This document shows, piece by piece, positions 1 through 33,714 of a stretch of DNA of 39,038 nt. The translations under genes and the position numbers were made by a program. The notes beneath the pieces were generated by a model that did not search any database, was not told the DNA's origin, and saw only the letters and a program-made list of their open reading frames with translations. This stretch comes from an uncultured Methanosarcinales archaeon. Its GTDB lineage: Archaea; Nanobdellota; Nanobdellia; Woesearchaeales; SKGA01. The first letter of the stretch is position 1. Each line of letters opens with the position of its first letter. The stretch lies in assembly GCA_964603345.1 (NCBI GenBank), contig CAZRUJ010000001.1:1-39038 (forward strand). The letters are read 5' to 3'.

Positions 1-850
1 ATCGTTCTATTGCAATCATAAAAACGGTCTGTTCCATTATGAAGTAAGTGGAGTGAGGGCGGGAACGACAAAATATGATTTCCTCTTCACGCAAGAATCC
101 TTCGTTCCGGAAAACATCTACACATGGACTCTTGACTGGAGGATGCCGACGAAGATAATGACATTCACCTATCTCACCCACGACGATCATGCTTTTATAT
201 TCTACGATGATGGGTCTGTCGAATTCAATAGGTTGTATGAACCATTCCCTAAAAATGTTACACACATCACATATAATAAGACAACAGTGGATTCATTTTC
301 ACAAGATAGTTTGAATTACGACGGATATACTTATGTATTTCTCGAAAGCCAAGATATTCCTGAAAATTTGAAAGAAGGAATACGAGGAGATCAAGCTCTT
401 GTCATCACAGTCAATCAGAGTTCTCATTTCCTTTATGATTATGGGAACGTATTATACCAAAGCCCTTCAGAATACCAAAAGGGAGCTGAAACTGGTCATG
501 CACCTTATATCGGAAAAGCATCACTTTACGGGGCCTTGTTCTCAGGATCGAAACAATTATACGAATGCACAATGAAAAAAGCATATGATTATCTGAACAT
601 GAGATTGCTAATGGAATGTGATCGCATCGAGAAAATAGCTCCTGATGTCAGTCCACAATGTCAAAGATTACTTGTTGGAGTCGATGACGGGATTCCTCGT
701 GCGAAACACTTCATGGGTAATATGACCGAACGATTGCAAGAAGGTATAGAAACAGAAGAGGATGTCAAATTCCTGTATGAAAAGAATCAAGCGATCAAGG
801 ATAACAATTACAAGCTATCGATGCAAGGCAATTGCCCGCTACTCTATTAG
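1..850 (+). CDS. Hypothetical protein, probably the C-terminal part of a gene that starts upstream of the window; first visible gene of the co-directional surface/pilin-like cluster
   Basis: The frame of ORF 53..850 has no stop codon back to nt 2. Only a GTG lies at 53, and the first in-frame ATG is far downstream. The TAG stop at 848-850 abuts the next gene. No domain recognised. Confidence 0.5.
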   Translation, partial: SFYCNHKNGLFHYEVSGVRAGTTKYDFLFTQESFVPENIYTWTLDWRMPTKIMTFTYLTHDDHAFIFYDDGSVEFNRLYEPFPKNVTHITYNKTTVDSFSQDSLNYDGYTYVFLESQDIPENLKEGIRGDQALVITVNQSSHFLYDYGNVLYQSPSEYQKGAETGHAPYIGKASLYGALFSGSKQLYECTMKKAYDYLNMRLLMECDRIEKIAPDVSPQCQRLLVGVDDGIPRAKHFMGNMTERLQEGIETEEDVKFLYEKNQAIKDNNYKLSMQGNCPLLY

Positions 851-862
851 GTGAGAGGAAGA

Positions 863-1366
863 ATGCAAAAGGGACAGATACAAATCGGGGAAACGATCTT
901 TATAGTGATATTTATCCTTATCATAATCGCGTTCGCATTTGTGTTCTACTCAGGAGCCAAAGAAGATGAAACGCGACAAAGGCGAGCAAGATTCGCAGAG
1001 CTTGAATCGATAGAAAAATCCCAGATAGCATCATCGCTACCGGAAATAAGATGCACACTCAACGGCGTGGTCAAGGAATCATGCTTCGAGATAGAACGCA
1101 TGGAATCATTTATCAGTCTGACAAAGAACAATCCGTCGATGACAAGAGAGCATTATGTTTCTAAATTAGGTAATATGGAGCTGGTTGTCGAACAGATATA
1201 TCCTAAAAAAAGAATATGGGTGCTTTATAACAACACGCTTGGCGAGAACGTGCCTCAATCAGGACTGCCTGTTATCATTCCAGTATCACTTTATGATGCG
1301 ACCGCTGAAAAATATAATTACGGCATCTTATATGTCACTAACTTCGAAAAAAATACAGTAATTTAA
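863..1366 (+). CDS. Class III signal peptide (type IV pilin-like) protein
   Basis: The ATG at 863 is preceded by GAGAGGA. The ORF-track GTG at 851 lies 12 nt upstream in the same frame. The N-terminus MQKG|QIQIGETIFIVIFILIIIAFAFVFY has a short basic leader, G at -1, then a hydrophobic helix of about 22 aa. Confidence 0.6.
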   Translation: MQKGQIQIGETIFIVIFILIIIAFAFVFYSGAKEDETRQRRARFAELESIEKSQIASSLPEIRCTLNGVVKESCFEIERMESFISLTKNNPSMTREHYVSKLGNMELVVEQIYPKKRIWVLYNNTLGENVPQSGLPVIIPVSLYDATAEKYNYGILYVTNFEKNTVI

Positions 1367-1388
1367 CCAAAAACAAGGGTTTTCACCT

Positions 1389-1892
1389 ATGAGATCGAGG
1401 AAAGCACAATCAGAAATTATAGGTCTTGTCATCATCGTCCTAATCGTGAGTGTGGCTCTGATGATATATTTGACAAGCCAGGCGGAAAAAGCAGAGGAGA
1501 ATCAAGGGTTAAATATCCAGAAAGAATATGCATATAATGAACTTGCGATAAGCTTTGTCGATACGCTGGTCGATACATCTGTGTGCGGAGTACAGCTTGA
1601 TGATATCATAAGAGATTGCGGTTCGCAACGGGAGATAGTGTGCAGTAACGGTCAGACGTCCTGTCAGAAGGTTAATGAGACGCTCATAAAGATAAAGAAT
1701 AATACGCTCGACACATGGAATGTCCCGTACGGATTGACAATTATATATCCTGAAGACAAAAACCCCACGTTTGAATACGTTAAAGCGAATTGCACGAGCG
1801 AAACGACTGGGCGAAGCGCGCCAGGACATATACCTATACCGCTCAAACCACAAGGAACCGCAATCATAGAATTAGGGATTTGCGAACCCTAA
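1389..1892 (+). CDS. Class III signal peptide (type IV pilin-like) protein
   Basis: The N-terminus is MRSRKA|QSEIIGLVIIVLIVSVALMIYL. The ectodomain has six Cys. The gap to the upstream gene is 22 nt. Confidence 0.6.
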   Translation: MRSRKAQSEIIGLVIIVLIVSVALMIYLTSQAEKAEENQGLNIQKEYAYNELAISFVDTLVDTSVCGVQLDDIIRDCGSQREIVCSNGQTSCQKVNETLIKIKNNTLDTWNVPYGLTIIYPEDKNPTFEYVKANCTSETTGRSAPGHIPIPLKPQGTAIIELGICEP

Positions 1893-1905
1893 TTGTCAAT
1901 CAGCG

Positions 1906-1926
1906 GCAAAAAGATATTGCTTTTTT
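1906..1926 (+). terminator. Possible weak terminator: short GCAA/TTGC hairpin followed by a T6 run
   Basis: gcaaaaagatattgc followed by tttttt at 1921-1926, directly after the stop of 1389..1892. It sits in the only intergenic gap over 100 nt inside the cluster. Confidence 0.3.
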
Positions 1927-1941
1927 AAATTAATGCAAACA

Positions 1942-1949
1942 TTTAAATA
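1942..1949 (+). promoter_or_regulatory. Candidate internal TATA box for the downstream part of the pilin-like cluster
   Basis: TTTAAATA lies about 55 nt upstream of the ATG at 2005. This would leave a leader of about 30 nt containing GAGGTG (1990-1995). A second AT box (ttttatat, 1965-1972) is an alternative. Confidence 0.3.
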
Positions 1950-2004
1950 ATATTATTGTGGTTTTTTATATACTGTTATGTGAATTTATGAGGTGTATTT
2001 TAAT

Positions 2005-2295
2005 ATGATGCGATTGAACAGGAAAGGTTCAGAATTATCGATGAATGTCATTATCATAGCGGCGATCGCTTTGCTCGTGCTCGTGATATTGGCGGTCATG
2101 CTACTTCAAAAAGGCGGTGACCTGAAAGAAGGCACCAGTTGCGAAGCCCTGGGTGGTAAGTGTTGCAGTGCTTGTGACGCTTCATGTTATGATAACCAAG
2201 GGAATACTTACAAGATCCACAATAACGCTCAGGACAGTTCGTGTTCGGAAGGACAACAATGTTGTCTGAAGATAGGCAATAGTCAGAACCGATAA
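2005..2295 (+). CDS. Small Cys-rich class III signal peptide (pilin-like) protein
   Basis: An ATG-ATG pair at 2005 lies 10 nt after GAGGTG, and the ORF-track GTG at 1993 is part of that SD. The N-terminus is MMRLNRKG|SELSMNVIIIAAIALLVLVILAVMLL. The ectodomain is about 60 aa with 8 Cys (CEALGGKCCSACDASC...SSCSEGQQCCLK). Confidence 0.7.
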   Translation: MMRLNRKGSELSMNVIIIAAIALLVLVILAVMLLQKGGDLKEGTSCEALGGKCCSACDASCYDNQGNTYKIHNNAQDSSCSEGQQCCLKIGNSQNR

Positions 2296-2355
2296 GGTTT
2301 TTTGGTTTTTTTCTTCATTATTGTCATATCATCCCATAATGTGAGGTCCTTACCG

Positions 2356-4287
2356 ATGCAGACTCCCTTGTTTTATTCGAAAAAAGCCAGTACTGATGTC
2401 ATACGCATCATAATGTATATTGTTATCATAGGAATAGTGGCTGTTGTCATGCTCAGCCTATTTAGTAATCAAGCGGAAAACGCTGAACGAATGGGCGAAT
2501 GCCAAGGAGCGCTTGGTGGCGTGTGGGCTGAAGAATGCAAGGAGAATATTTCTACACGAGCATCAATGTTTGAAGAACAGGATGGGAAAGTGTGTTGTGT
2601 CAAGAACGTAGGTCTTTCTGATAGGGAGACTGAAGAATTCGAGAAATGGAGAGAAGATCTGGTGCCAGATTCTTCAAAGAGTGCTAGCTCATCACCAGGG
2701 GATGATAGTGAGGGTTCAAGCCCGAGCGGTTCGGATAGGAATGTGTTGAAACTACAAGATACTGAACTTCTATTACAAGAACAGCAAGATAATGAGGATG
2801 TTTTTTTCAGACTCAATGACCGGTCGCTTGCAGGATATACGGATTTAGAAGCTTCAAAAGAATCTAACATACTACATTTGAAAAACCAAAGGAAATACAC
2901 ATTCACTGTCATCAATAATATGGATACTGTCAAGAGTTGCGAGATGGGAATATACAAAGCAGAATCCATTGCCGGAAAATTCAGAGTTGCAGATGCTGAC
3001 AAGAATCCTGTTTCAGGACTTTATGCCAGAAGCACAGATTGCACGAAATTGACAGCACTTTATTCGATCGGAGTGATCAACGAACAAGGTTATTATGTGT
3101 GGGATGTGAAACTCTATGATGAAAACGGCGAGGAATCATTCTCACGAAAAAGGGTGCTTCGTGTAAAAGAAGATATTTCAGAAGATAAGATTATCAAGCA
3201 AAAAATACAGACGGAAACGAGAATTGTGCCAAGTAACGGGGTGGATCGGTGTATGGTCAGTTCGAGACTTCAGGAATATGATGATTCGATCGGAAAGTAT
3301 TTCGATGTTGAGAATGAAGATGTGACTGTCTCCCCAGAACCATATTATATCGGTAACAAACAAGATGAACATGTTGATGGAGATGAACTCTCCTGCCCTC
3401 CGATGACAGGAGATGCATATGGTACAAAGATAGAAGTTGTCGATGCAACAATGGATGATGTCAATCTCGATTTTGCTAAAGATGGTATTCAAGGGGTGTG
3501 TCTAAAGTTTGACGTCTCATCGAATGAATATGACAGGATATATCCTACATCAGGGGCCACAGAACTTGTTACGCTATCAAGCGACCAATGTGATACGCTC
3601 GAATTCATGAACTATTCCACCTTCAAGGATGTATTTTATGAATGCCCATATCCTTGCAAGGAATACGATAATCAGAAAATATCCTGCAATGACAGGGCTT
3701 CGAGAAATCCGCAATGCCAATTGGCGATCGACTGCTACTGGGAATCACAAAGCTTTTTCAATACCAAATGTAAAAGCTGCTCTGAAAACATGAGATGCGA
3801 AGATTATGATAATGAAAAGACGTGCGAGAGCAATCAATGCGTTCCAGGAAAAACATGCTTTTGGGAGGATTCTGCAAGCAATCCTGAAACCCGATTCAAG
3901 ACAGGGCTGTGCATGTCTTGCTCTGAAAAACCAGCATGTAGTAAATATGATTCCAAACAAACCTGTGAAAAGAACCCTTGTGATGCGTATGAAGCAGGAG
4001 AATCCGCATGCACCTGGAACTCTGAAAAGAATCGTTGCACACTCTCTGAAGAGATGCTTAATGCAGGAGCTCCTGAAGAACCGCACGTGGTAGAATGTGA
4101 TGATATGAAACGGGACGAATGCGAAAGCGATGGCAGTTGCTGGTGGGATTATGATGTATTAGGAGGGAATTGTTACGATTGCTCGATGATAGATGAATCA
4201 TGCTCAAACTATCCTGATAAGAATTCTTGTCAAGAGGATTATTGCGGAGTTGGCAATTGCAATTGGGATGATGGTGAATGCCAATGA
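2356..4287 (+). CDS. Large class III signal peptide protein with a Cys-rich head motif, an acidic/Ser-rich linker and five C-terminal Cys/Trp repeats
   Basis: The ATG at 2356 lies 8 nt after GAGGT (2343-2347). The ORF-track TTG at 2302 would add a non-native hydrophobic extension. The N-terminus is MQTPLFYSKKA|STDVIRIIMYIVIIGIVAVVMLSLF, followed by ECQGALGG...KVCCVK. The C-terminal 210 aa hold more than 25 Cys. Confidence 0.7.
   Translation: MQTPLFYSKKASTDVIRIIMYIVIIGIVAVVMLSLFSNQAENAERMGECQGALGGVWAEECKENISTRASMFEEQDGKVCCVKNVGLSDRETEEFEKWREDLVPDSSKSASSSPGDDSEGSSPSGSDRNVLKLQDTELLLQEQQDNEDVFFRLNDRSLAGYTDLEASKESNILHLKNQRKYTFTVINNMDTVKSCEMGIYKAESIAGKFRVADADKNPVSGLYARSTDCTKLTALYSIGVINEQGYYVWDVKLYDENGEESFSRKRVLRVKEDISEDKIIKQKIQTETRIVPSNGVDRCMVSSRLQEYDDSIGKYFDVENEDVTVSPEPYYIGNKQDEHVDGDELSCPPMTGDAYGTKIEVVDATMDDVNLDFAKDGIQGVCLKFDVSSNEYDRIYPTSGATELVTLSSDQCDTLEFMNYSTFKDVFYECPYPCKEYDNQKISCNDRASRNPQCQLAIDCYWESQSFFNTKCKSCSENMRCEDYDNEKTCESNQCVPGKTCFWEDSASNPETRFKTGLCMSCSEKPACSKYDSKQTCEKNPCDAYEAGESACTWNSEKNRCTLSEEMLNAGAPEEPHVVECDDMKRDECESDGSCWWDYDVLGGNCYDCSMIDESCSNYPDKNSCQEDYCGVGNCNWDDGECQ
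3655..4284 (+). repeat. Five tandem protein-level Cys/Trp modules (about 30-47 aa each) inside CDS 2356..4287
   Basis: The modules are CKEYDNQKISC..C..CYW..CKSC / CEDYDNEKTCESNQC..CFW..CMSC / CSKYDSKQTCEKNPC..CTW..C / CDDMKRDEC..CWW..CYDC / CSNYPDKNSCQEDYC..CNW..C. They share the spacing C-x2-Y-[DP]-x4-5-C-x4-C-x4-9-C-x-W-...-C(-x2-C). The DNA copies have diverged and no exact nucleotide repeats are present. Confidence 0.75.
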
Positions 4288-4409
4288 GATTAGTTCGTTC
4301 AATAAAAGGTATGGTTGAGAATCAACTTATTATTATCATATTCATAATCATATTATTGCTTGCGGTAACCACGGCTGTTATGAGGTTGAAATCAAATGTT
4401 CTCGGATAG
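4284..4409 (+). CDS. Unannotated 41-aa micro-ORF encoding a minimal class III signal peptide protein (helix-only pilin-like)
   Basis: My own translation gives MRLVRSIKG|MVENQLIIIIFIIILLLAVTTAVMRLKSNVLG*. Its ATG at 4284 overlaps the TGA of the upstream gene (ATGA), as at four other junctions in the cluster. Its 3' end overlaps the next start at 4396 by 14 nt. It is below the ORF-track length cut-off. An alternative start is the ATG at 4311. Confidence 0.5.
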   Translation: MRLVRSIKGMVENQLIIIIFIIILLLAVTTAVMRLKSNVLG

Positions 4410-5118
4410 AGGAAAAAAGGCAGATGGTCCTTCAATCACCATGACACAAATTATTTTTATTGTTATTGCCATGTTGACTTTTTTCTTCGGGTTTTCATTT
4501 TGTAATACTGCACAAGCAGCTACCAAAGAGACATTTGAAGGGACTGCGTGCAAGGCCATGATAACAACGCAGGAAGTGACTGATTCAATTTTCATGCCTT
4601 CATACAAGAACGCATGCACTACCGTAATCAAAGAATACTCGCTAAAGGATAAGACAGAGGATGATGTGATGGACTTGGTCGCTCAAGGGATGGCGTTCGG
4701 TTGGTGGATGACAAATAAAGGAAAAACAACGGATCTCTGGACGAATGAGAAAGGAGTGCTGAAGGCATCGGGAACTAGCTGTCTTGCCGTGGTCAAGATT
4801 GTGTTTACCGACACCGACAAGCTTGATGAAGATGAACGTGAGAAAATAAACAATATAACACAAGATGACATAAGAGAGTATCTTCAAGAAACTGATAAGA
4901 ATGATGAATATACATATCATACATATATTCAATCTTCAGGAGGTCCAGGGACATATAAGATAAGAAGCGGTATCGATATTGATAGAGAGTATTATATTGC
5001 GATAGCAAGCCCTAGCAGTTCCCGAATGCAAGATGTGTTCGGAAAAGGTGTACAAGCATCATCAGGAGTGATCTTTGCAAGGACTGGAAAATTACCGGAG
5101 GATTGTAAGGTATTATGA
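4396..5118 (+). CDS. Class III signal peptide-like exported protein
   Basis: GAGGT at 4382-4386 lies 9 nt upstream of the ATG. The N-terminus is MFSDRGKKA|DGPSITMTQIIFIVIAMLTFFFGFSF, with the hydrophobic helix slightly displaced from the basic-A motif. Confidence 0.55.
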   Translation: MFSDRGKKADGPSITMTQIIFIVIAMLTFFFGFSFCNTAQAATKETFEGTACKAMITTQEVTDSIFMPSYKNACTTVIKEYSLKDKTEDDVMDLVAQGMAFGWWMTNKGKTTDLWTNEKGVLKASGTSCLAVVKIVFTDTDKLDEDEREKINNITQDDIREYLQETDKNDEYTYHTYIQSSGGPGTYKIRSGIDIDREYYIAIASPSSSRMQDVFGKGVQASSGVIFARTGKLPEDCKVL

Positions 5119-5315
5119 TAGTGCAACTGGCAAGAACGATGATAGATCACATAAGGCTTTCGCGCAAGGCCCAGATGTCGAATCTAACTGAGATCATACT
5201 GATCATAGTGGCGTTTGCCGTGCTTTTAGGCCTTTTCATCTTCTTCACACAGGATAAGGGCTCGGAAGCGACAGAAGCGACAACAGGATTGCTTGATGAG
5301 ATAAGCACCAAATAG
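5115..5315 (+). CDS. Very small class III signal peptide pilin-like protein (mature form about 47 aa)
   Basis: There is an ATGA overlap with the upstream stop. The sequence ...RLSRKA|QMSNLTEIILIIVAFAVLLGLFIFF is followed by only about 22 polar residues. The leader is longer than usual, and the internal ATG for MIDHIRLSRKA is an alternative start. Confidence 0.6.
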   Translation: MIVQLARTMIDHIRLSRKAQMSNLTEIILIIVAFAVLLGLFIFFTQDKGSEATEATTGLLDEISTK

Positions 5316-5325
5316 AAGGTAATAG

Positions 5326-6399
5326 ATGATGGCAGGAATCTCGACGATAGGGAAAGTCATGATTATGGTAATAATCGTATTTTTAGGGTTCCAGCTCATC
5401 ACAAACCAAGGCCTGAATGCACAAGAAGTGACAAACAAATCACTCAATTTCTCGAGTGTCTTGCCAGAGCAGGAGCGTAGCATAAGCAAATATGCTGACG
5501 AAATTGAAGTACCGAATGAGGTTATCCTTTATTTCTATACATTTCTGGAACAAGCATTCAAAGATGATGACCTTTATGAGAATGGTAAGAATAGAGGACG
5601 ATTCGTCTGCATGACGCCACCGCCTGAAACAAATGACGATAATCGTTTCATGATAATTCTAGCACAAAAAGGTAACGACGTCAATGCAGCGCTCTATGAC
5701 GATCAGAAAGAACAGCTACATTTTAAAGATGACTTATTCCCTGACAAATCGTTCTCGTTTCTGAAAGACAGAAAGGTATATATCGTTCCAAACGATTATT
5801 ATGATCCTGATATAAAAAAAGAACCGAAAAAGAACGATGTATATGAAGAGGGTTCAAAACATCTGAACGATCTTATAGCGATGGATCTAAAAACACAAAT
5901 GCCGAAAAGTGATATATCTTACATTAATGGTTTTGATCAGGTTGATGGTCTTCATGCTTTTGAGAATAAATATGAGAACAGATATAACTTTGTCGCTGAC
6001 AATTCCTATGATTTCATATTAGCAGGGAATAACAGACGGCTCAGACCAGGAAGAGTTCATGTGGATGGAAATCATGGACCAAAAAACTTTCACAATAGGG
6101 ATGTCTATGTAGGTTGGGTGACATACCCTGAAGATTGCTTGCTGGCATTCAAAGGGGTCAATAGTATTGGTGCGAAATCAACAGCTTTCATATTGACATC
6201 AAAAACTAATGGTTATAAGGTAAGGCATTTCGAAGATACGAATTTTTGTGTCATGCCTGACTCCGGCCATGAAAAAAAACCAGTGTTAGATCCAGGTTTT
6301 ATCGAGAACTATGTACAGATTGACGATGGAGATTTTGATTGTATTGATAAAAAACTGAGTAAACCAAAATTCCTTTATGACTACTTAAAAAAATATTGA
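5326..6399 (+). CDS. N-terminally anchored exported hypothetical protein in the pilin-like cluster
   Basis: The N-terminus MMAGISTIGKVMIMVIIVFLGFQLI is hydrophobic but lacks a clear [KR]-[GA] leader. The gap to the upstream gene is 10 nt, with GAAGGT upstream. No domain recognised. Confidence 0.5.
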   Translation: MMAGISTIGKVMIMVIIVFLGFQLITNQGLNAQEVTNKSLNFSSVLPEQERSISKYADEIEVPNEVILYFYTFLEQAFKDDDLYENGKNRGRFVCMTPPPETNDDNRFMIILAQKGNDVNAALYDDQKEQLHFKDDLFPDKSFSFLKDRKVYIVPNDYYDPDIKKEPKKNDVYEEGSKHLNDLIAMDLKTQMPKSDISYINGFDQVDGLHAFENKYENRYNFVADNSYDFILAGNNRRLRPGRVHVDGNHGPKNFHNRDVYVGWVTYPEDCLLAFKGVNSIGAKSTAFILTSKTNGYKVRHFEDTNFCVMPDSGHEKKPVLDPGFIENYVQIDDGDFDCIDKKLSKPKFLYDYLKKY

Positions 6400-6422
6400 A
6401 TAATGCTATAGGTGATTGAACG

Positions 6423-6929
6423 ATGAAACCCATGAATACCAAGGCCCAAACAAGAAAGATCGGTGATATAATACTAGTTCTCGCGGTGGTTTTTCTAGTT
6501 ATTGTGCTTGCAAGAAAATATTTCGATATAGGCGATCAGATGGGAGATGAAGCCACAGGAATCGTAGACGATGTTAAAGATTCAGGACTGGATGTTCTTA
6601 CAAGCAAAAATAAAGAAGAGGAAGATGGTGATATGTGTCCGGATAAAGATAAAGGATATTATTCGGTTGATGGAGATGCCCTGTCGCTCGTGTTTGACGA
6701 TTCTGAGAACATAGAAAGGATACATGAGAATGATCTTGAAATTATTGAAAAGTATTTGTCTGAAGAAAAGGATGGTCTTGATTTCGAAAATGAAATGTTA
6801 AATGAAAATCTCAAGCAATCAGCAAATGGAGAGATTCCATCAATAAATAGTTTTTGTCAGAAAACCTCATCTTGTGATCTAGAAAAATTCAAAGAACAAG
6901 CGGATGTAGAACTCATCTGTAAAACATGA
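6423..6929 (+). CDS. Class III signal peptide (pilin-like) protein, acidic ectodomain
   Basis: The N-terminus is MKPMNTKA|QTRKIGDIILVLAVVFLVIVLA. TAGGTGA lies 8 nt upstream of the ATG. Confidence 0.6.
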   Translation: MKPMNTKAQTRKIGDIILVLAVVFLVIVLARKYFDIGDQMGDEATGIVDDVKDSGLDVLTSKNKEEEDGDMCPDKDKGYYSVDGDALSLVFDDSENIERIHENDLEIIEKYLSEEKDGLDFENEMLNENLKQSANGEIPSINSFCQKTSSCDLEKFKEQADVELICKT

Positions 6930-8620: not shown

Positions 8621-8632
8621 ATGACGTCTTAT

Positions 8633-8656
8633 GACGATGTGATCTGACACATCGTT
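8633..8656 (+). other. Perfect 8-bp inverted repeat (hairpin) in the 67-nt gap between two cluster genes
   Basis: ACGATGTG-atctga-CACATCGT lies 13 nt after the stop at 8620 and about 30 nt before the SD and ATG of 8688. It is not followed by an oligo-T run. Confidence 0.3.
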
Positions 8657-8687
8657 TCACATTCATTTAACAAAAAGAGGTCTGCGG

Positions 8688-9599
8688 ATGAGAACATCAA
8701 AGCCAAACAAGAAAGGAATGCTTTCGCTTATGATGCTCGTTGATATTCTCGTCGCTGCAATGGTCGTTCTCATCTTCATAGGAATACATCAAGTTATGAC
8801 AGATAAGGATCAGATCGAGAACATGGTGATGGCAAGGGATGTGGCAACACTTATAGACACCATGCAAACAACAGATAAGGATGTGACTTATCTTTATCCT
8901 GAAAGTTTTTATGAAAAAGATTTCTTTATCAACAAGTCGCAGCTTCTTGTCACCAACAACTTTATAGGTGAAGCTTCAGAACAAGCATCCATGTTAAGGT
9001 ATTTGACACAATATCCTATTCATAGGTCTAAATATTTTCATTTGGACGATAACGAACATCTGGAAGGAGCGAGATTATATTTGCTCAAAAAAAATAATAT
9101 TATAACAATAAATCCTGAAAACGAACAATTGTCTGAAGAAAAGCATGAAGAGATATCGTCTTGGACACGTGAAGAACTCATTCTTACAGTAGCTGCAGGC
9201 GACCAAAAAAACTCATTCATTTCAGATATGGTTGGAAAACTACGCTCACAACTCGAGATAGAAGAATTCAGGATAAAAGATCCTTGCCAATACGTTGATA
9301 TGATAATCATGATAAATGAATCAACAAAGGTTGATAGAGTCACGATCTATTATGAGAGAACCAATAAAGACAAAACAGAAATTATTTCTGAAAAAATAAG
9401 ATATTATCTTGCAAAAAGTAAGAATGTACCTGTTGCCAAAGAAGTCATGGAATACGAACACCCTGAAAACGATGCATCGATAAGAATACTCATACCGCAA
9501 AAGGAAGATGTGAGAACGACACTGAAAAGTTCCGATGAATTCGATATGTTCATAGAGAGGATCGTGTATGCCATGAAAGAATATTATCCTGAAAAATGA
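8688..9599 (+). CDS. Class III signal peptide (pilin-like) protein
   Basis: AGAGGT lies 7 nt upstream of the ATG. The N-terminus is MRTSKPNKKG|MLSLMMLVDILVAAMVVLIFIGI. Confidence 0.6.
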   Translation: MRTSKPNKKGMLSLMMLVDILVAAMVVLIFIGIHQVMTDKDQIENMVMARDVATLIDTMQTTDKDVTYLYPESFYEKDFFINKSQLLVTNNFIGEASEQASMLRYLTQYPIHRSKYFHLDDNEHLEGARLYLLKKNNIITINPENEQLSEEKHEEISSWTREELILTVAAGDQKNSFISDMVGKLRSQLEIEEFRIKDPCQYVDMIIMINESTKVDRVTIYYERTNKDKTEIISEKIRYYLAKSKNVPVAKEVMEYEHPENDASIRILIPQKEDVRTTLKSSDEFDMFIERIVYAMKEYYPEK

Positions 9600-10075
9600 A
9601 AACGCTATTTGACAATAAGAAAGGATCGGAAGGAGATATGTATGTAGCAGCGGAGAAACCCTTCAAGCATATCGTATTCATAATCATAGTCTCTGCTGTC
9701 ATCATCTTATTTCTCTCATATGCAACGAGTTTCATGAGTTCGAAAGTACATGTGCCTGAAACGCTGAAAGGAGAGCTTTTAATGCAACGGATGCAGAATA
9801 TCTGCCTTGCCACAACTGATCCTGTAACAGGAACACCAATTGAGAATGTCATTGATTACTCTAAATTCAACAGTGAAACACTTAACAATTGCTTCAGCGG
9901 AGAAAACACACCGGGACTCTCGGTAGAATTAAACCCTCTTGATAGAATTAATGGGCAATTTGATCGAAAAGTAATAAAAATAGGTCACGGCGGTCAAGAG
10001 CTTGAATATTTACGATATACGATAGTTGATATCGATGGAATAAGATATCCTGCAGAAATGGTGGTGAGAGCATGA
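9596..10075 (+). CDS. Atypical class III signal peptide-like protein
   Basis: There is an ATGA overlap with the upstream stop. The N-terminus is MKTLFDNKKG|SEGDMYVAAEKPFKHIVFIIIVSAVIILFLSYA. The basic-G motif is present, but the hydrophobic helix lies about 18 residues further on. Confidence 0.5.
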   Translation: MKTLFDNKKGSEGDMYVAAEKPFKHIVFIIIVSAVIILFLSYATSFMSSKVHVPETLKGELLMQRMQNICLATTDPVTGTPIENVIDYSKFNSETLNNCFSGENTPGLSVELNPLDRINGQFDRKVIKIGHGGQELEYLRYTIVDIDGIRYPAEMVVRA

Positions 10076-10725
10076 ACAAAAAAGGACAGCACGTGCTTGA
10101 TCTAACAACGCTCATTGCAGGAGTGATTTTTATCGCACTTGCCATTACATTATTCTCATTATTTGCCGATGCACTCGAGGGTAATCAGCAGGAAAAAGTA
10201 ATGGTATCGCAAGCGCAGCTCCAATCAGAGCAATTTGTCAGGACATTTTCCATGACGCCAGTCATGTATGGAGATAAAGAAATTTCTGTTGGGGAGCTTG
10301 CACAAAAGTATTATGACCTCTACATACAAGATGAGATTGGAAATTGCAATGATTGCCAGAAAAAGATGGAAGCCATAAAAATAGTTATAGAAGAAAAAGC
10401 GAACCAAGTGAAACCATTATTTCAAGGATCCTCAGAAGAGCTTAGCATGACGCTCATGAAAGAAAAATCACAAGAAGGCACCAAGGGCACAGTATCTTTT
10501 GAAATAGCCGATGATATAGCGAATAAATGCGAATTGAAGAATGGTGTTTCAAAATTATGTTATACTTATTTGAACAGACCGGCAGCAATATATCTCCCTG
10601 TAATAACATCACAACCGACAAGCAGGTATGACAATTATGTGATTGCTATTGGATTTATCACTAAATGGCTTGATAGTAAGGAACCATACAAGTATGACTC
10701 TGAAGATGCAAAAACTCTAGACTGA
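10072..10725 (+). CDS. Class III signal peptide (pilin-like) protein
   Basis: There is an ATGA overlap with the upstream stop. The N-terminus is MNKKG|QHVLDLTTLIAGVIFIALAITLFSLF. Confidence 0.6.
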   Translation: MNKKGQHVLDLTTLIAGVIFIALAITLFSLFADALEGNQQEKVMVSQAQLQSEQFVRTFSMTPVMYGDKEISVGELAQKYYDLYIQDEIGNCNDCQKKMEAIKIVIEEKANQVKPLFQGSSEELSMTLMKEKSQEGTKGTVSFEIADDIANKCELKNGVSKLCYTYLNRPAAIYLPVITSQPTSRYDNYVIAIGFITKWLDSKEPYKYDSEDAKTLD

Positions 10726-10746
10726 AAACAATAGGGTTGGAATAGG

Positions 10747-13700
10747 ATGAAACAAGTATTTGATTCGAAAAAGGGAGCATCGCTTCTTATCGTGGGATTA
10801 TTTGTCCTGCTTGCCACCCTAGGAATAATAATCGCAGTCAATACGGTCGAGGATGTCCCTGTTATCGGTGAAAAACAATATGCTGTCATGATCGCCAACG
10901 AGAAAGCATCCGCAGTCGATCTCTTTATCGATAACATCCTCTTGAGAGCCGTGAATAAGATGAATGAAGAGTTCTATGAGAATGATGGGGTGTTTAAAGA
11001 AGAGACAGAACAAGGGTCCGTATCATCTTATAAGTGTGGGGAATATATGTTTCCAAGATATTATGTTGCTGGCAGCAATCAGAATTGCATACCTGACTAT
11101 AAAGAAGAATTCAAAAGTTTTGTGTCATCATCCTCATTCAATCAACTGAAGGATTATCCTGATTATTCAATCAATATAAATCCCAGCATCAACTACGTAA
11201 CGCAATCAGATGTGTTCGATTGTGATGGGGACGAAACTATCGCGGAAACACATCGTAGACAAGCACAACAACCCGCTTGGAAGAATGAAGAAAAAACATA
11301 TATTGAAATAGCGTCTGAGGTGGCCTCGGAAACAGGTGTTGATATGCCATTACTGCTGGCTCATGCGACGATTGAAAGCTCTATGGGAAAAGAAAATTCA
11401 TGCACTGATAGCGGAAAGAGTTCCTTGACAGGTTGCGGATGGCCGTCAAGCTGCGCGAGCGGTTGCAAGTGCGAAGATACTAGAGGATATTTCGTGAGCG
11501 ATAAGGCACAATTCGAATGCACGGCACGAGTTGATATAAATGCATTTTTGGCAAAAGGAACATACCAGCGATGCGAAGATCATCTTGATGATAAGAGGAA
11601 ACTGTTCGATTGTGTAATGTGCACCTATCAAGGGAGCTATTATACGGCTCACGGTGAAGGCAATACGAAATCATTTTCCGAAGATGGCACGTGTGAATAT
11701 GCAGAGTTGATGCAAGATCTCTATTGCGGTTGGAAAAACGAACTGGAAGATGATGACCTTGCTAAAACAAGCAATAACGGATTATTCATGACACTCGAAG
11801 CTCAAGAGCCCATAATAATACCTATTGGGGATGTCGATACTACTGATTTTGAAGTCTCACCAGAAAACTATCCCAACGGAATATTGGGAACATATGGCAA
11901 TGAGATCATCATACCTTGCTCGTCATCGAGCTGTCTTGCAGATATCGCAGAATACTATCACAGTATTTATCCGTCTTATAATTATGTTTGGGGTGGAGAA
12001 TCACCATATACTTATAAGGATACTCTCGATTTGACTACTCAGAAGGATTCTATTTTTCACAATATGGAGTCCCAGATCTCAAAGACAGAACCCGGTAAGA
12101 ATGAGTTCACACGACCTGGTTTCGATTGTTCTGGGTGGGTATGGTGGGTCGGGCGCCATGCCAATTCGACTTTATTCAACGCTCGACAAGGGGCGAACGC
12201 ATATTATAATATGTTTTTTGATTCGGATTCGACAAAAGAGGTTTGCGCAAAAAATACTGATACACCGTGCACCATAGAAAACATCGTCAACGAAGCGAAA
12301 CCTGGTGATCTACTATTTTACAAGTCGCCAGATGACCTTGTTGTTTCCCATATTATGATATATGTAGGTGATGGTAAGATAAGTCATGCCAGAGGATCGA
12401 AAGGGCTTGTTAAAGAACCACTACCAGCATCATATGAAGGAAATATCATAGCAGTTTATCATCTCACAGAAAAAGCATTTACGGGCGAATACAATTCGTT
12501 AAAAGATTATATCAACCAAGAAAAAGATTCGGATAAATCAGATCAATCCGAGGATGAAAACATACCCGCCACTTCTTGTTCGTTAACCATTGATTTCTCA
12601 CAGATAAATAAGGACGCAATCAAGAATGAAAGGCTTGGTTATAAGAAAATACAACAAGTTATCGATAAACACAACCTAGATGAAACCATCCGTGAAGCGG
12701 GAGAAAAGTATAATGTTCCATCAGCATATATCAAAGCCATCATCACCGCAGAAGTCGGAGGGCTATCGTTTCTTGATAAATATCTATCCGGTGAGGAAAA
12801 GGTAAGCGAAAGCGGGATGAGAGGACCCATGCAATTATCGAGATCTGCCTGTGATACGCTTAAACAAAACGATATAATTTGTAATTATGATGATATTAAG
12901 AAAGGAGATGTCAAACACGCTATCATGGCTTCAACAGCGAATATAGCATTATTACGGGATAGAACGAAATATATCGATAAAGATAATCCTGATTATTATT
13001 TTCTTTCACTAGCATACAATGCAGGCCAAGGAAGCCTCGCTAATGTGCTTGAAGAAGCGAGCGAACGAACGGGGATTGAAGAACAAGAGCTTTTGTGGAG
13101 AGATATATCCTTTGAAGATGTCAAACAAGGAATCAAACGAGTCGGCACAGGTTGGGCTCAAAAAGAAAGCAAATGGAATGAGGTATATGAATATCCCAAC
13201 CTTGTAGCAACATCACTATCGCAACAATGTACCGGAACACTCTACAAGAAAGGTATGGTGGGAGGTGAGGATTCCAACACAATATCAATTCAACCAAAAT
13301 CAAGGATACCTATTGATATGCCCTTTGAACGATTATCATATATCAAGCACTTCATAAATGATATCGATGATTGTGATGACGAGCTCAAAGATTGTGTCAG
13401 TGACCAACTTAACAAATTCAACTACGGCAGAGAGGGCGCTAGCTTAAGTGAACTGTTTGGATTAACTATATACTCTTCAGAATTCACTGAAAAAAAATAT
13501 GCGGGCGTTTATACGTCAAAGATGTTCGCCTACGAATTTATCGAGGAACTCATGGACTGCTCGACAAATAAGCAAACAGAGTGCGTCTGCGCAATCGACA
13601 TCAACATGTCAAAATTGAAACAAAACACGGTTGATATAGTGTTAGAATGGAATTCTCCGATAGCATCACAGGCTGATCTTATCGTCAATGGAAATTATGA

Positions 13701-15378
13701 AAAGACAATCTCGCTACCACCTCTCTCGGTCAAGACAAAAAGAGAATATATTAATGCCGAAGACAAGTTACATTTAACCTTACATAAGGATCTGGACAGG
13801 GTCGATATAGATGCAGGAATGCAGTCTTGGACATTCGACATCCACAACATCTCGCTCATGAAACACTTCTCCTATGAGGATTATTATCAAAATGAACAAT
13901 TATATGATATTCCTTTATTTCAACGATCGATGGGAGATCTCACCACCAGCATATCACAAAATGATATGGCTTTCCATGATGATTTTATCACCTATTATTT
14001 CAACCCAGAAAACTTCAGACCTGAATATCCTGATATATCGTCGATTCCACAAGAAAGCAAAAAATGCAAAACAGACCTTGTCGATTATGCAAAAAAATAC
14101 TTGGGCACAGGGTATGGGAGTGACGGTATATGTAGCGCTGAAGACGCTCAAGCAGGAAAATGCACCACACAATGTGGCTCATACATTACAAACATATTCA
14201 GAGAAGTATTCAGTGATCCTGTTTATGGAAACGGAAATCAGAAATGTGATATTCACAGCGATGTCAAAAATAATCAGTTCCTCAATCCGGAATTGCTCAA
14301 GCCAGGAGATTTATTCTCTTCAGATGGTCTTTCTGAAGCAGCGAAAAAATATGGTCATACAGGAATGTATGTTGGAAAAGGAATCGTTTCTGATACGGTG
14401 AGAACGACAAGTTCAGGAAAACCTTATTGTCACAGATCATTCACTCAGGATGAGCATGGAGAGCATGTCTTTATCCATTCGGTGGGTCCTGTATGCTATA
14501 GCACTTTTGACGAACTCATATCTCCAGATGGGCAAGCAAGAAACATGATATCATTTTGCAGATATGAGAAATGCAAAGGAGAGCAAACTGAGATCTCAAG
14601 TGTGAAAGCGAGAAGTGGAATGACTCTGATGGAATATGACGAGACGAGAATGGAACCATTCACCTGCAGGGAATCAAAAGATTCATTCGTATTCTTTGCC
14701 TCGCCTAAAGATGTAAATCAAAATATAGGATTCTCGGTCAAACTCAAAGATACGACACCGCCTGACAATGTAGAATCAGTTTCAGCTTCGCAATCGATGT
14801 GCGGAGGAGTGCCGACCGCGATATTCACATGGAAAGACAATCAGGATGATATCTATGCATATAATATAACTGTCAAGAAAATAAATTCGAAAGATTCAAC
14901 AACATTTATCGTACCAATCTCACATACAGTAAAACATCCAAATTCAGATTCAACATCTTTTTTAGGAAATCTCAACATTCTCAATAAACCCTATGTGACT
15001 GAAAAACAACACGGTAGTGAAACAGAAAGAAAATACACTTTCCATGCGGGATCAACGGGTGAGAAAAAGCTATTCAACACGTCAGGAACATATGAGTATG
15101 AGATAAAACCTCTCGATCACCATCTCAATTCACCACCTCGTGGGCGGAAGGATGCGTTTGAAATATTCATTTCAGAAAAAGGACTGGAGAAGATAAGTTC
15201 GTCGATTGTAGGATCAGATATGGTAGGTGATATTTCACAAAAGGCTCTTAAAATATTGCTTGAAAAAACGTGCACGAATTATTATTCTATATTGCAACGT
15301 GATCATGATGCGATATTCTACGATCTTGGAGAATCAAGCATGCTCGATAAAGAGGTGGATCATGCCGTCGAGGAATGA
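10747..15378 (+). CDS. Giant (1543 aa) class III signal peptide protein with two SLT-like lytic transglycosylase and two NlpC/P60-like cysteine peptidase domains plus a C-terminal beta-rich (FN3/Ig-like) region
   Basis: The N-terminus is MKQVFDSKKG|ASLLIVGLFVLLATLGIIIAVN. SLT-1 is GVDMPLLLAHATIESS (Glu codon 11374-11376). NlpC/P60-1 is YNYVWGGESPY...GFDCSGWVWW (Cys codon 12127-12129)...GDLLFYKS...VSHIMIYVGDGKISHA. SLT-2 is YNVPSAYIKAIITAEVGG (Glu 12751-12753)...GPMQLS...LAYNAGQGS. NlpC/P60-2 is AKKYLGTGYG...QCGSYITNIF (Cys 14173-14175)...PGDLFSS...YGHTGMYVGKG...FIHSVG. Confidence 0.8.
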   Translation: MKQVFDSKKGASLLIVGLFVLLATLGIIIAVNTVEDVPVIGEKQYAVMIANEKASAVDLFIDNILLRAVNKMNEEFYENDGVFKEETEQGSVSSYKCGEYMFPRYYVAGSNQNCIPDYKEEFKSFVSSSSFNQLKDYPDYSININPSINYVTQSDVFDCDGDETIAETHRRQAQQPAWKNEEKTYIEIASEVASETGVDMPLLLAHATIESSMGKENSCTDSGKSSLTGCGWPSSCASGCKCEDTRGYFVSDKAQFECTARVDINAFLAKGTYQRCEDHLDDKRKLFDCVMCTYQGSYYTAHGEGNTKSFSEDGTCEYAELMQDLYCGWKNELEDDDLAKTSNNGLFMTLEAQEPIIIPIGDVDTTDFEVSPENYPNGILGTYGNEIIIPCSSSSCLADIAEYYHSIYPSYNYVWGGESPYTYKDTLDLTTQKDSIFHNMESQISKTEPGKNEFTRPGFDCSGWVWWVGRHANSTLFNARQGANAYYNMFFDSDSTKEVCAKNTDTPCTIENIVNEAKPGDLLFYKSPDDLVVSHIMIYVGDGKISHARGSKGLVKEPLPASYEGNIIAVYHLTEKAFTGEYNSLKDYINQEKDSDKSDQSEDENIPATSCSLTIDFSQINKDAIKNERLGYKKIQQVIDKHNLDETIREAGEKYNVPSAYIKAIITAEVGGLSFLDKYLSGEEKVSESGMRGPMQLSRSACDTLKQNDIICNYDDIKKGDVKHAIMASTANIALLRDRTKYIDKDNPDYYFLSLAYNAGQGSLANVLEEASERTGIEEQELLWRDISFEDVKQGIKRVGTGWAQKESKWNEVYEYPNLVATSLSQQCTGTLYKKGMVGGEDSNTISIQPKSRIPIDMPFERLSYIKHFINDIDDCDDELKDCVSDQLNKFNYGREGASLSELFGLTIYSSEFTEKKYAGVYTSKMFAYEFIEELMDCSTNKQTECVCAIDINMSKLKQNTVDIVLEWNSPIASQADLIVNGNYEKTISLPPLSVKTKREYINAEDKLHLTLHKDLDRVDIDAGMQSWTFDIHNISLMKHFSYEDYYQNEQLYDIPLFQRSMGDLTTSISQNDMAFHDDFITYYFNPENFRPEYPDISSIPQESKKCKTDLVDYAKKYLGTGYGSDGICSAEDAQAGKCTTQCGSYITNIFREVFSDPVYGNGNQKCDIHSDVKNNQFLNPELLKPGDLFSSDGLSEAAKKYGHTGMYVGKGIVSDTVRTTSSGKPYCHRSFTQDEHGEHVFIHSVGPVCYSTFDELISPDGQARNMISFCRYEKCKGEQTEISSVKARSGMTLMEYDETRMEPFTCRESKDSFVFFASPKDVNQNIGFSVKLKDTTPPDNVESVSASQSMCGGVPTAIFTWKDNQDDIYAYNITVKKINSKDSTTFIVPISHTVKHPNSDSTSFLGNLNILNKPYVTEKQHGSETERKYTFHAGSTGEKKLFNTSGTYEYEIKPLDHHLNSPPRGRKDAFEIFISEKGLEKISSSIVGSDMVGDISQKALKILLEKTCTNYYSILQRDHDAIFYDLGESSMLDKEVDHAVEE

Positions 15379-15391
15379 GACTGATGGAGGT

Positions 15392-15949
15392 ATGATTTTC
15401 TCCATGAACAAGGTGTATGCTCTGGCAATATTCATAACAGTGTTGTTTCTTATTCCTGTGCCTGCTCAAGCAATAGACTGTGTGGAAGGGATCGACGGTT
15501 ATTGTAATATGGAATGTGTTGAGGTGGATTTTGATTGCGCATCAAATCCGAATCACGAAGGTAATGTTAATATTGGATATGCTAATTCAACAGAAGAAGA
15601 TGTGAATATCAAGGTTGACGAATCCGAATCACAAGAGAATAGAAGCGATGTACTACGTCAGGAAACGGCTGACCCTTTCAAGAAGCCCACATCTGAAGGT
15701 TTCGATATAGTCCTCATAGCAGGATTCGCTGGAGGATTGTTGATGATGATAGCATTCCTTCTTGTTCTTAGAAGGTATGAGATACGAAAGGGCCATACGA
15801 GAAAAGAATCAACATCAATCAAAGAATACATACAGCGGGTGCGAAGCCAAGGGTTTGGTGATACCAAGATACAGCAAGCGCTCCTTGAGAGGGGATATTC
15901 CGAGAAAATCGTCAGAGAAGCGTTTCAAGCACTGGACGGACAGGAATAA
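15392..15949 (+). CDS. Sec-type signal peptide, single-pass membrane protein with a Cys-rich ectodomain and a small cytoplasmic helical C-terminal domain
   Basis: The ORF opens at 15227 inside the previous gene. Plausible starts are ATG 15362, 15392 (just after GGAGG) and 15404. The sequence MNKVYALAIFITVLFLIPVPAQA|IDCVEGIDGYCNMECVEVDFDC is followed by a TM helix IVLIAGFAGGLLMMIAFLLVL. The tail is IKEYIQRVRSQGFGDTKIQQALLERGYSEKIVREAFQAL. Confidence 0.6.
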   Translation: MIFSMNKVYALAIFITVLFLIPVPAQAIDCVEGIDGYCNMECVEVDFDCASNPNHEGNVNIGYANSTEEDVNIKVDESESQENRSDVLRQETADPFKKPTSEGFDIVLIAGFAGGLLMMIAFLLVLRRYEIRKGHTRKESTSIKEYIQRVRSQGFGDTKIQQALLERGYSEKIVREAFQALDGQE

Positions 15950-33438: not shown

Positions 33439-33714
33439 TTCATTCTTTTGTTCTTGTTTTCAGCTTTTCAGAAACATTGACTTCAGGAAAGAAGGCGCCG
33501 GTAAAACCAAGTTATCACAAATCATGGTCTCGATCTGACCAATGTATTTGATTGTCTGGTTACTAGGATCATCACGGACTTCAGAATCATTGCACACAGG
33601 ACATATGCGACTATATTCTCCGTTTCCATGACGTCTCAACAATACCATCTCCATTCTTTTCCGATGCAGGAACAATAACACTTAAGTAATCAATGATATT
33701 AATGTATTGTGAAC

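Follow-up and report, generated by a model that had tools for sequence, protein, structure and literature searches.

Gene Content of the Locus and Class III-Type N-Termini

The first 15,949 nucleotides (nt) of a 39,038-nt stretch of DNA from an uncultured archaeon (GenBank assembly GCA_964603345.1, contig CAZRUJ010000001.1; the whole stretch that was analysed is referred to as the window) carry 16 co-directional genes, all on the + strand, which were named g0 to g15 in window order. By the list of open reading frames (ORFs) and by independent gene calls, every real gene from the window edge to about 15.9 kilobases (kb) is on the + strand, as the original prediction on this DNA had stated. Fourteen of the 16 products are bitopic proteins with a conserved class III-type site, [KR][GAS]↓Q/S/A (the arrow marks the cleavage position), 13 of them by their own motif and g0 by orthology. 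These genes make up the downstream ~16 kb of a cluster that extends over ~36 kb in relatives and belongs to uncultured Woesearchaeota-type DPANN archaea (Nanobdellota/Nanoarchaeota by present naming), and on balance this cluster probably encodes the structural proteins of a type IV filament or pseudopilus.

The 13 N-termini quoted in the original prediction, each a short basic leader ending in [KR][GA] and then a hydrophobic helix, were all present, and none of these proteins has a hydrophobic segment other than the N-terminal one. For g0, the full-length orthologues (P0002–P0006) read ..K[GA]↓Q[LVI].., then FNWIF, with the start ..TKG↓QIQLQFNWIFVIII. The start of g12 is atypical for class III, yet it is kept in the orthologues, and distant members of the family read KA↓QFDLARKTIYWMIAG. 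The motif is absent from g8 and from all three of its orthologues as well, and this product is probably a signal-anchored accessory protein.

A regular expression for the motif is not specific on its own, as it matches three of eight control proteins with an N-terminal hydrophobic segment (two polytopic membrane proteins of the window and one SpoIIM-family protein). Even so, the enrichment is strong, with 12 matches among the 16 ORFs of the cluster and 3 among the 38 that flank it (Fisher p = 2e-6). The decisive argument for the motif is its conservation.

Orthologues were taken from two genome-derived relatives, two short-read assemblies, five species-representative genomes and 66 JGI/ENA metagenome contigs. 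In the g2 family (69 orthologues, identity down to ~25%), position −2 is Lys or Arg in 61 of 66 sequences, −1 is Ala, Gly or Ser in 66/66, +1 is Gln in 66/66 and +3 is Glu in 69/69. For g1 (65 sequences) the corresponding counts are 56/61 for Lys or Arg at −2, 61/61 for Ala, Ser, Gly or Thr at −1 and 59/62 for Gln at +1, with Glu at +6 in 62/62. The same K-K-[GA(S)] column is found in families g0, u6, u3, g6, c7, c13, c16 and c10 (u1 to u6 being genes upstream of g0 in relatives), and in the g6 family Lys or Arg at −2 and Gly, Ala or Ser at −1 are conserved. Gln at +1 also occurs in u3 (7/7), in most g0 and u6 sequences and in the g3-like family c7 (14/19); the residue at +1 is not Gln in g3 proper (Ser), g10, g11 and g14. 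Where the basic residue at −2 is lost, the small residue at −1 and Gln at +1 persist, which fits a protease recognition site and not a mere positive-inside flank. The reading of these N-termini as class III (prepilin-type) signals was upheld by a site kept in ~70 orthologous loci, with a small −1 residue, Gln at +1 and Glu in the helix, and the place of [KR]-[GA] before the helix was kept across the orthologues of the window proteins.

The conserved micro-proteins g5 and g7 consist of hardly more than a class III leader, a helix and ~10 residues, with a mature length of ~32–46 amino acids (aa); if real pilins, they would rank among the smallest known. The C-terminal NVLG of g5 is common to the window copy and the L003 copy (L003, 15095–15226), and class III ORFs of 41–48 aa recur in many loci (L035, L036, L044, L051, L056 and L075).

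Gene Layout and Spacing

The features of the cluster and of its neighbours are detailed in Table 1. The original prediction had described gaps of 0–25 nt or ATGA start/stop overlaps throughout. All the overlaps (at 4284, 5115, 6926, 9596 and 10072) were present, but the gaps are not all that narrow: 112 nt precede g3 (1893–2004), ~45 nt precede g4 and 67 nt precede g11. The G + C content is slightly lower in the cluster (0.36–0.41) than further downstream (0.40–0.44). No tRNA genes or Rfam families were found across the window.

Table 1. Coordinates and properties of the cluster genes, their signals and neighbouring genes. Cys, cysteine residues; SD, Shine–Dalgarno; TM, transmembrane.
Feature	Position (nt)	Strand	Description
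u1	upstream, relatives		~1620–1680 aa, Cys-rich, Sec signal
u2	upstream, relatives		Memo-like (PF01875, 5e-35)
u3	upstream, relatives		~1171 aa, class III start MRTKG↓QATIFVILG
u4	upstream, relatives		~1390 aa, 78–80 Cys, Sec signal
u5	upstream, relatives		~1550 aa, Big_13 and Y_Y_Y domains, Sec signal
u6	upstream, relatives		~170 aa, class III
g0	2–850	+	C-terminal 282 aa of a ~365-aa class III protein; N-terminus lost at the contig end (nt 1)
g1	863–1366	+	167-aa pilin-like, MQKG↓QIQIGETIFIVIF; conserved Gln +1, Glu +6
g2	1389–1892	+	167-aa pilin-like, MRSRKA↓QSEIIGLVIIV; six Cys
TATA box TTTAAATA	1942–1949	+	archaeal type; inside the 112-nt spacer preceding g3
Second TATA box TTTATATA	1965–1972		spacer upstream of g3
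SD-like GAGGTG	1990–1995		upstream of g3
g3	2005–2295	+	96-aa mini-pilin, RKG↓SELSMNVIIIAAIALLVLVIL, then ~50-aa domain with 8 Cys
T-tracts (GGTTTTTTGGTTTTTTTCTTC)	2296–2316	+	directly 3' of the g3 stop codon
g4	2341–4287	+	648-aa class III, Cys-rich (38 Cys), ..YSKKA↓STDVIRIIMYIVIIG
g5	4284–4409	+	41-aa micro-pilin-like peptide, RSIKG↓MVENQLIIIIFIII
g6	4396–5118	+	240-aa class III, RGKKA↓DGPSITMTQIIFIVIA
g7	5115–5315	+	66-aa class III mini-protein, LSRKA↓QMSNLTEIILIIVAF; orthologues GKKG↓ and GRKG↓
g8	5326–6399	+	357 aa; N-terminal helix without [KR][GA] motif
g9	6423–6929	+	168-aa class III, MNTKA↓QTRKIGDIILVLAVVF
g10	6944–8620	+	558-aa class III, LTRKA↓TMSLVMLISIL; alternative start at 6926
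g11	8688–9599	+	303-aa class III, PNKKG↓MLSLMMLVDILVAA
g12	9596–10075	+	159 aa, DNKKG↓SEGD..; helix 11 residues past the motif
g13	10072–10725	+	217-aa class III, MNKKG↓QHVLDLTTLIAGVIF
g14	10747–15378	+	1543-aa modular pilin-like, DSKKG↓ASLLIVGLFVLL; carrier module, then hydrolase modules
g15	15392–15949	+	Sec signal peptide, Cys-rich ectodomain, C-terminal TM helix, small cytoplasmic helical domain
RPA-like	16179–17336		single-stranded DNA-binding protein, downstream of the cluster
YdjM/DUF457	17354–17800		PF04307, 3e-21; downstream of the cluster
HerA	27403–28950		DUF87/HAS-barrel (Pfam)
KaiC-like ATPase	29095–29910		Pfam
Mre11-like phosphoesterase	33709–34977		assigned by reading the sequence
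RPA/YdjM downstream, L074	17015–18493		distant locus
RPA/YdjM downstream, L066	17392–18944		distant locus
RPA/YdjM downstream, L052	17765–19232		distant locus
RPA/YdjM downstream, L044	8001–9506		distant locus
RPA-like downstream, L033	17645–18718		RPA-like gene alone seen

Distribution and Synteny in Related Loci

About 70 loci were collected in total, and synteny of the whole block was borne out in ~25 loci of at least 10 kb, in which the order is giant Sec protein, u6, g0, g1, g2, one to three g3-like genes, 6–12 further class III genes and a g14-like gene. The regular expression flags ~10–18 ORFs per locus, of which one or two can be giant Sec proteins. Family occurrence in the collected loci was 69 for g2, 67 for g1, 54 for g0, 38 for the giant proteins, 35 for u6, 29 for g6 and 19 for g12. 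An exhaustive phmmer search with g2 against 1.84 billion cluster representatives returned at least 591 matches at E ≤ 1e-3 and 94 at 1e-10; among the 150 matches listed all were similar in size, most of them of ~150–200 aa. One weak BLASTP match at another locus (L016, 199 aa) was obtained for g13.

No orthologue of g15 was found in the other loci. This gene differs in kind from the other cluster genes, with weak RecX-like matches in its cytoplasmic helical domain, and its membership of the cluster is uncertain.

In close relatives the co-directional block runs ~20 kb further upstream of g0. The giant upstream proteins are Sec-secreted, Cys-rich and without membrane anchor, and their Pfam matches are limited to CarboxypepD_reg, Big_13 and Y_Y_Y. 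Several of them had been flagged as class III by the regular expression and were found on inspection to carry ordinary Sec signal peptides. With a C-terminal fragment (128 aa) of the 1171-aa protein (u3) as query, no homologue was found. The Memo-like gene (L008, 5415–6296; also L009–L012, L013 and L015) stands between giant genes in the closer relatives only.

Both flanks of the cluster are housekeeping genes. Beyond u1 in the relatives lie genes for RNase P p30, a pseudouridine synthase, MCM and TBP. Downstream of the cluster in the window, the RPA-like and YdjM/DUF457 genes are followed by further archaeal housekeeping genes, so that this side comprises RPA, HerA, a KaiC-like protein, a Mre11-like protein and an aminoacyl-tRNA synthetase. 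An RPA-like gene and a ~150-aa YdjM-like gene (by sequence similarity) also follow the cluster in four distant loci, with 24–30% protein identity (Table 1); this adjacency may simply be inherited from a common ancestor, or it may reflect a functional link to YdjM, which is a putative membrane-bound metal hydrolase. Fixed housekeeping flanks on both sides indicate a vertically inherited feature of the core genome and not a mobile element.

Additionally, the cluster looks rearranged or interrupted in the sub-lineage L023–L027 (e.g. L026, 5000–12200), in which g2 is followed by a u3-like gene and a second giant gene and then by NuoE/NuoF-like genes (judged from their N-termini). In this sub-lineage, the pilin-like genes of the downstream part may be located at another place in the genome. 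The cut of the cluster at the contig end is probably due to the giant repeat-rich upstream genes, which break assemblies. Two cluster-bearing contigs from binchicken co-assemblies (L010 and L012) are labelled 'uncultured Methanosarcinales archaeon'; their cluster, Memo-like gene and giant genes match Woesearchaeota-type loci, and the Methanosarcinales label on both is probably a binning or labelling error.

Structure of g2 and Relations among Families

The only family modelled was g2. Its AlphaFold2 model, based on a 111-sequence alignment, reached a mean predicted local distance difference test score (pLDDT) of 92.5 and a predicted template modelling score (pTM) of 0.74, and consists of a helix of 59 residues (4–62) and a compact four-stranded alpha/beta head; the single-sequence prediction (pLDDT 51) was uninformative. 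In outline, the modelled shape may correspond to the lollipop form common to type IV pilins. Of the six Cys residues, five are invariant or nearly so across the family.

Scans of all products against Pfam, NCBIfam and PHROG reached threshold on the hydrolase domains of g14 alone. In all-versus-all hhalign comparisons of the globular parts, the families are not detectable paralogues, except for the pairs g3 and c14, g14 and c10, and g10 and c13; the N-terminal module of g10 is related to family c13 of distant loci. The membrane-proximal Cys motif of g4 resembles that of g3, the hhalign match between both being weak.

Internal Promoter and Candidate Major Subunit

The block had been described as a single operon. 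This description did not hold for g3, which is bracketed by a conserved internal TATA promoter and T-tracts. Spacers of 90–103 nt precede the g3-like genes, and 29 of 30 loci have a TATA octamer of the archaeal consensus type in the 100 nt ahead of this gene, compared with 0–8% for the other pilin-like families. The TATA box TTTAAATA of the window is conserved in L002 and L003, and T-runs similarly trail g3 in L002, L003, L007 and L017. The T-tracts likely act as a leaky archaeal terminator. With its own promoter and T-tracts, g3 gives the 16-kb 'operon' at least one internal transcription unit.

The first 33 residues of mature g3 hardly differ between three genomes that share ~57–70% identity in their other proteins, and g3-like genes often occur as two or three tandem paralogues at other loci. 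From the promoter, the small size, the duplication and the near-invariant helix, g3 is likely the abundant, polymerising major subunit.

Quartet of Small Pilin-Like Genes and Terminal Protein g14

The genes u6, g0, g1 and g2 are translationally coupled (median gaps −4 to +4 nt). This quartet is universal and lies directly downstream of the giant Sec-protein genes. By analogy, its products and the giant adhesins may form a priming/tip complex.

The terminal protein g14 has an NlpC/P60 domain at residues 413–558 (Pfam, 1.2e-12; C461, H535) and an SLT domain at 647–775 (Pfam, 4.6e-7, above cut-off; E669, GPMQL, AYNAG). A weak GH73/lysozyme-like region is found at ~187–312 (E210-S211) and a second NlpC/P60-like region at ~1100–1260 (C1143, H1204). 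The catalytic motifs are intact, namely DCSG and H-x-x-x-Y-x-G for NlpC/P60, and E669, GPMQL and AYNAG for SLT. Matches were obtained to PDB 2hbw, an NlpC/P60 protein, and to PHROG tail-lysin domains. The combination of SLT and NlpC/P60 modules is typical of Gram-positive conjugation hydrolases such as CwlT. The helix of g14 is followed by a conserved carrier module of ~100 residues, common to the terminal class III proteins of distant loci, whose cargo varies (SLT and TPM in the L021 homologue). To our knowledge, archaea have no murein of their own, so the target of the g14 hydrolases would be the cell wall of a bacterium, either partner or prey.

Absence of Assembly Genes

No T2SSE, T2SSF or peptidase A24 domains were detected among the scanned window proteins, and the Walker-A ORFs of at least 200 aa in the window are an ABC ATPase, HerA and the Mre11-like protein only. 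These scans agree with the earlier observation that no PilB/ArlI-type ATPase, PilC/ArlJ-type platform or prepilin peptidase is encoded in the window. The suggestion that the assembly genes may lie upstream of nt 1 found no support in the relatives, which have giant secreted proteins, a Memo-like gene and pilin-like genes there, and then housekeeping genes. Walker-A and multi-TM ORFs of the loci were considered as candidates for the ATPase, the platform or the peptidase. Those that Pfam or NCBIfam could name belong to other families (ABC ATPases, one of them ABCE1-like, HerA, MFS transporters, permeases, SpoIIM and CDP-alcohol phosphatidyltransferase) and were rejected; a few were left unassigned.

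Further downstream in the window, HerA, the KaiC-like ATPase and the Mre11-like phosphoesterase (Table 1) are of a DNA-repair type rather than type IV filament ATPases. Resemblance to ArlH occurs among KaiC-like proteins, but no ArlI or ArlJ was found near the KaiC-like gene in the window.

Machinery encoded together with the pilins is one defining feature of the canonical archaeal type IV filament (TFF) locus (bioRxiv 10.64898/2026.04.22.720090). The cluster lacks this feature, as neither a PilB/ArlI ATPase nor a PilC/ArlJ platform was found with its pilins in the window or in the related loci. On the other hand, pilA1–6 of Haloferax volcanii and several pilins of Methanococcus maripaludis are unlinked from pilB/pilC (PMC4371748).

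Comparison with Known Systems

The locus had been said to match no known archaeal pilus, archaellum or bindosome locus, and comparison with described systems bore this out. The closest in form are the Epd pili of M. maripaludis, whose pilin sites read RA↓QI, KG↓QV, KG↓QL and KG↓QI and whose peptidase EppA requires Gln at +1 (PMC4371748, PMC3875500). Epd pilins have leaders of 5–13 residues and an early Glu, and the major pilin has 74 aa (PMC3875500). Epd-type 'system 1' machineries have been reported in some DPANN genomes (bioRxiv 10.64898/2026.04.22.720090). The cluster site, [KR][GA]↓Q[IVLM], has the same form as these Epd sites. Both systems have an acidic residue early in the helix. They would also have in common a very small major pilin (EpdE, 74 aa; the candidate g3, 96 aa), many minor pilins, some of them adhesin-like, and some pilin genes apart from the machinery. 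However, the Epd locus of 11 genes encodes its own ATPase (EpdL), platform (EpdJ/K) and peptidase (EppA), none of which was found in the cluster in the ~25 loci of at least 10 kb. The cluster is three times larger and adds hydrolase fusions and giant Cys-rich Sec proteins to its 13–18 class III genes. The Epd domain DUF361 (QxSxExxxL; PF04021) has no match here, Glu occurs at +2, +3 or +6 instead of the Epd position +5, and no sequence or fold similarity is detectable in the globular parts.

In bacteria, the tip of the pilus can bear the non-pilin adhesin PilY1/PilC, which is presented there by four minor pilins (PMC8179133). The cluster resembles FimU-PilVWX with PilY1, and GspHIJK, in that four small coupled pilin-like genes adjoin a very large gene for a Sec-secreted non-pilin protein. 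This likeness is one of gene order only: no sequence or structural homology was found, the giant proteins have no PilY1 beta-propeller match, and the signal is archaeal, without the bacterial G↓F/M..E N-methylation motif.

Modular type IV pilins such as PilB and PilC of Streptococcus sanguinis are catalogued by Raynaud et al. (2021), where the cargo modules named in the available text are lectin, vWA and peptidase modules, a cell-wall hydrolase not being among them (PMC8179133). Like these, g14 joins an N-terminal pilin module to bulky effector modules, with a conserved carrier, variable cargo and a predicted location at the filament tip. Unlike them, it is archaeal, has 1543 aa and bears three or four peptidoglycan hydrolase modules; the catalogued modular pilins are bacterial and defined by IPR012902, which does not apply to g14.

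Giant murein-lytic-transglycosylase proteins of Woesearchaeota and Pacearchaeota (fam00969, Module 98) have been described, with a proposed action on the bacterial cell wall (Castelle et al. 2021; PMC8204110). Like these proteins, g14 is a large extracellular SLT protein of a Woesearchaeota-type DPANN archaeon, and it is very probably a member of this giant SLT family. Rinke (2013) and Castelle (2015) are also said to have named giant murein-lytic proteins. The class III signal, the NlpC/P60 modules and the place at the end of a multi-pilin cluster are not reported for fam00969 in the available text of PMC8204110.

The Sulfolobus bindosome (BasABC/BasEF) is similar in having large functional proteins with class III signals that are processed by a prepilin peptidase and held at the surface, and whose genes are scattered away from the ATPase. 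It differs in its substrates, which are solute-binding proteins of ABC transporters; no such domains or homology were found here.

Interpretation of the Cluster

Taken together, we consider it somewhat probable that the cluster encodes the structural parts of an Epd-like type IV filament or pseudopilus that serves cell contact, such as attachment to a host, with its assembly genes unlinked. What was shown, and what this interpretation builds on, are the conserved cleavage-type site, the bitopic topology, the helix-and-head model of g2, the synteny, the g3 promoter and the hydrolase domains. Under this interpretation, a prepilin peptidase encoded elsewhere, EppA-like in view of the Gln at +1, would remove leaders of 4–20 residues. 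The products of u6, g0, g1 and g2 would form a priming/tip complex to which the giant Sec-secreted adhesins attach, in the way that PilY1 is docked by the minor pilins of bacteria, and g3 would polymerise as the major subunit beneath the tip complex and the adhesins. The class III proteins from g4 to g14 would be minor or modular pilins displaying effector modules, and g14 would expose glycan- and peptide-cleaving murein hydrolases at the site of contact with a bacterial partner or prey. The ATPase and platform for assembly, of PilB/PilC type, would be encoded at a separate locus, an arrangement known for H. volcanii PilA1–6 and several M. maripaludis pilins.

Several results weigh against this interpretation. 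The predictor check failed for curated class III/pilin hidden Markov models (HMMs), which gave no above-threshold score: TIGR02537, PF04021 and PF07790 found nothing at cut-off on the full proteins or on 111 N-terminal fragments. The best of these scores was 14.6 bits for TIGR02537 on g2, against a cut-off of 20 (E = 0.017). Hints in the direction expected of pilins were all sub-threshold: TIGR02537 and UpsC for g2, ComGC for u3, classIII_w_PIP for g0 and PilE1 for u6. The acidic residue stands at +2 (g3), +3 (g2) or +6 (g1) and not at the canonical +5. A Foldseek search with the g2 model against the PDB recovered no solved pilin; the best match had E = 0.06, and the matches were to unrelated folds (dCache and ribosomal protein uS3 among these non-significant ones). 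Profile searches with g0, g1, g2 and u6 against PDB sequences gave nothing significant, the single match of u6 being S. sanguinis PilE1 (E = 0.2). No secretion ATPase, platform or A24 peptidase was found in the cluster or within 10 kb of g2 in the ~25 loci of at least 10 kb. The ~390-aa terminal proteins of many loci have no Pfam match, and hydrolase modules are thus not universal. The roles of single proteins (tip complex, major subunit) come from gene order, promoter and analogy only, and cleavage, polymerisation and target are likewise inferred.

A bindosome-like display, in which the cleaved proteins form a short pseudopilus close to the cell, like that of the type II secretion system (T2SS), or a membrane-anchored raft that holds enzymes and giant adhesins, and no extended pilus, is possible but doubtful. 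Many subunits are indeed large and enzyme-bearing (g4, 648 aa; g10, 558 aa; g14, 1543 aa), the number of different class III proteins per locus (13–18) is far above the need of a simple pilus, and the cluster contains no dedicated ATPase, as in the bindosome, whose class III substrate-binding proteins are encoded apart from the ATPase (sugar-binding proteins are PibD substrates; PMC4371748). Nevertheless, the separate promoter, the frequent duplication and the ultra-conserved helix of g3 form the pattern of an abundant polymerising subunit, and a conserved Glu within the helix is typical of filament packing. Such a display would depart from an Epd-like filament in filament length and use, and the biochemistry is common to both.

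It is unlikely that the N-termini are uncleaved signal anchors, K-K-G/A being the positive-inside flank of type II anchors and the products forming a membrane-tethered envelope or attachment complex instead of a type IV filament. The failure of the curated pilin and class III HMMs would be expected in that case, as would the lack of nearby assembly and processing genes at any locus, the matches of the regular expression to three of eight unrelated controls, a g2 head that is not pilin-like by Foldseek and the anchoring of g8 without the motif. A plain anchor, however, needs no invariant small residue at −1, Gln at +1 and Glu in the helix, all of which are retained in 65–69 sequences at ~25% identity. 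The site is also identical in form to proven EppA sites (PMC4371748), and g5 and g7, with 41–66 aa and little beyond leader and helix, would anchor nothing.

An integrated virus or a conjugative element (type IV secretion system- or Ced-like) using wall hydrolases for cell entry is most improbable and was rejected on conserved core-genome synteny: g14 does match lysin domains of phage minor tail and internal virion proteins, its SLT and NlpC/P60 modules are paired as in conjugation hydrolases and the G + C content of the cluster is slightly lower, but RNase P p30, MCM and TBP lie directly upstream in close relatives and RPA and YdjM downstream in the window and in distant loci, no integrase, capsid, terminase, VirB4 or coupling ATPase was found, structural PHROG matches come only via the lysin domains, and there is no tRNA gene in the window.

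Beyond the Epd-like filament, a broader reading may be put forward tentatively, as a serious possibility that falls short of being probable. The cluster would encode a lineage-wide organelle of Woesearchaeota-type archaea that has so far gone unrecognised, derived from a type IV filament, in which a four-pilin tip with giant Cys-rich adhesins and modular pilins bearing hydrolases attaches to bacteria and breaches their walls.

Implications for Woesearchaeota-Type Archaea

The giant SLT protein family is already known (PMC8204110). In the searchable literature no description was found of the multi-pilin cluster, its ~36-kb extent, the quartet with its adhesins, the separately promoted mini-pilin or the separation from assembly genes. 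Few uncultured archaea are as widespread as Woesearchaeota and Pacearchaeota. DPANN genomes measure roughly 1 Mb, of which a ~36-kb cluster takes up several per cent. Large, conserved in order down to ~25% identity, fixed in a core-genome position and invisible to Pfam, NCBIfam and PHROGs, the cluster is therefore a strong candidate for host-contact machinery.

If the class III reading is right, Epd-like filaments gain an architecture in which all structural genes are apart from the motor, and archaeal examples are added to the enzyme-carrying modular pilins. The giant murein hydrolases would then be placed on a filament, which supports the hypothesis that some DPANN archaea target bacteria. 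Concrete families are also gained, with at least 591 g2 representatives, g3 as candidate major subunit and cleavage sites that can be sought in metaproteomes. If the organelle reading is true as well, an abundant uncultured clade would consist of cross-domain episymbionts or predators of bacteria, and the cluster would be the first molecular handle on how these archaea do so.

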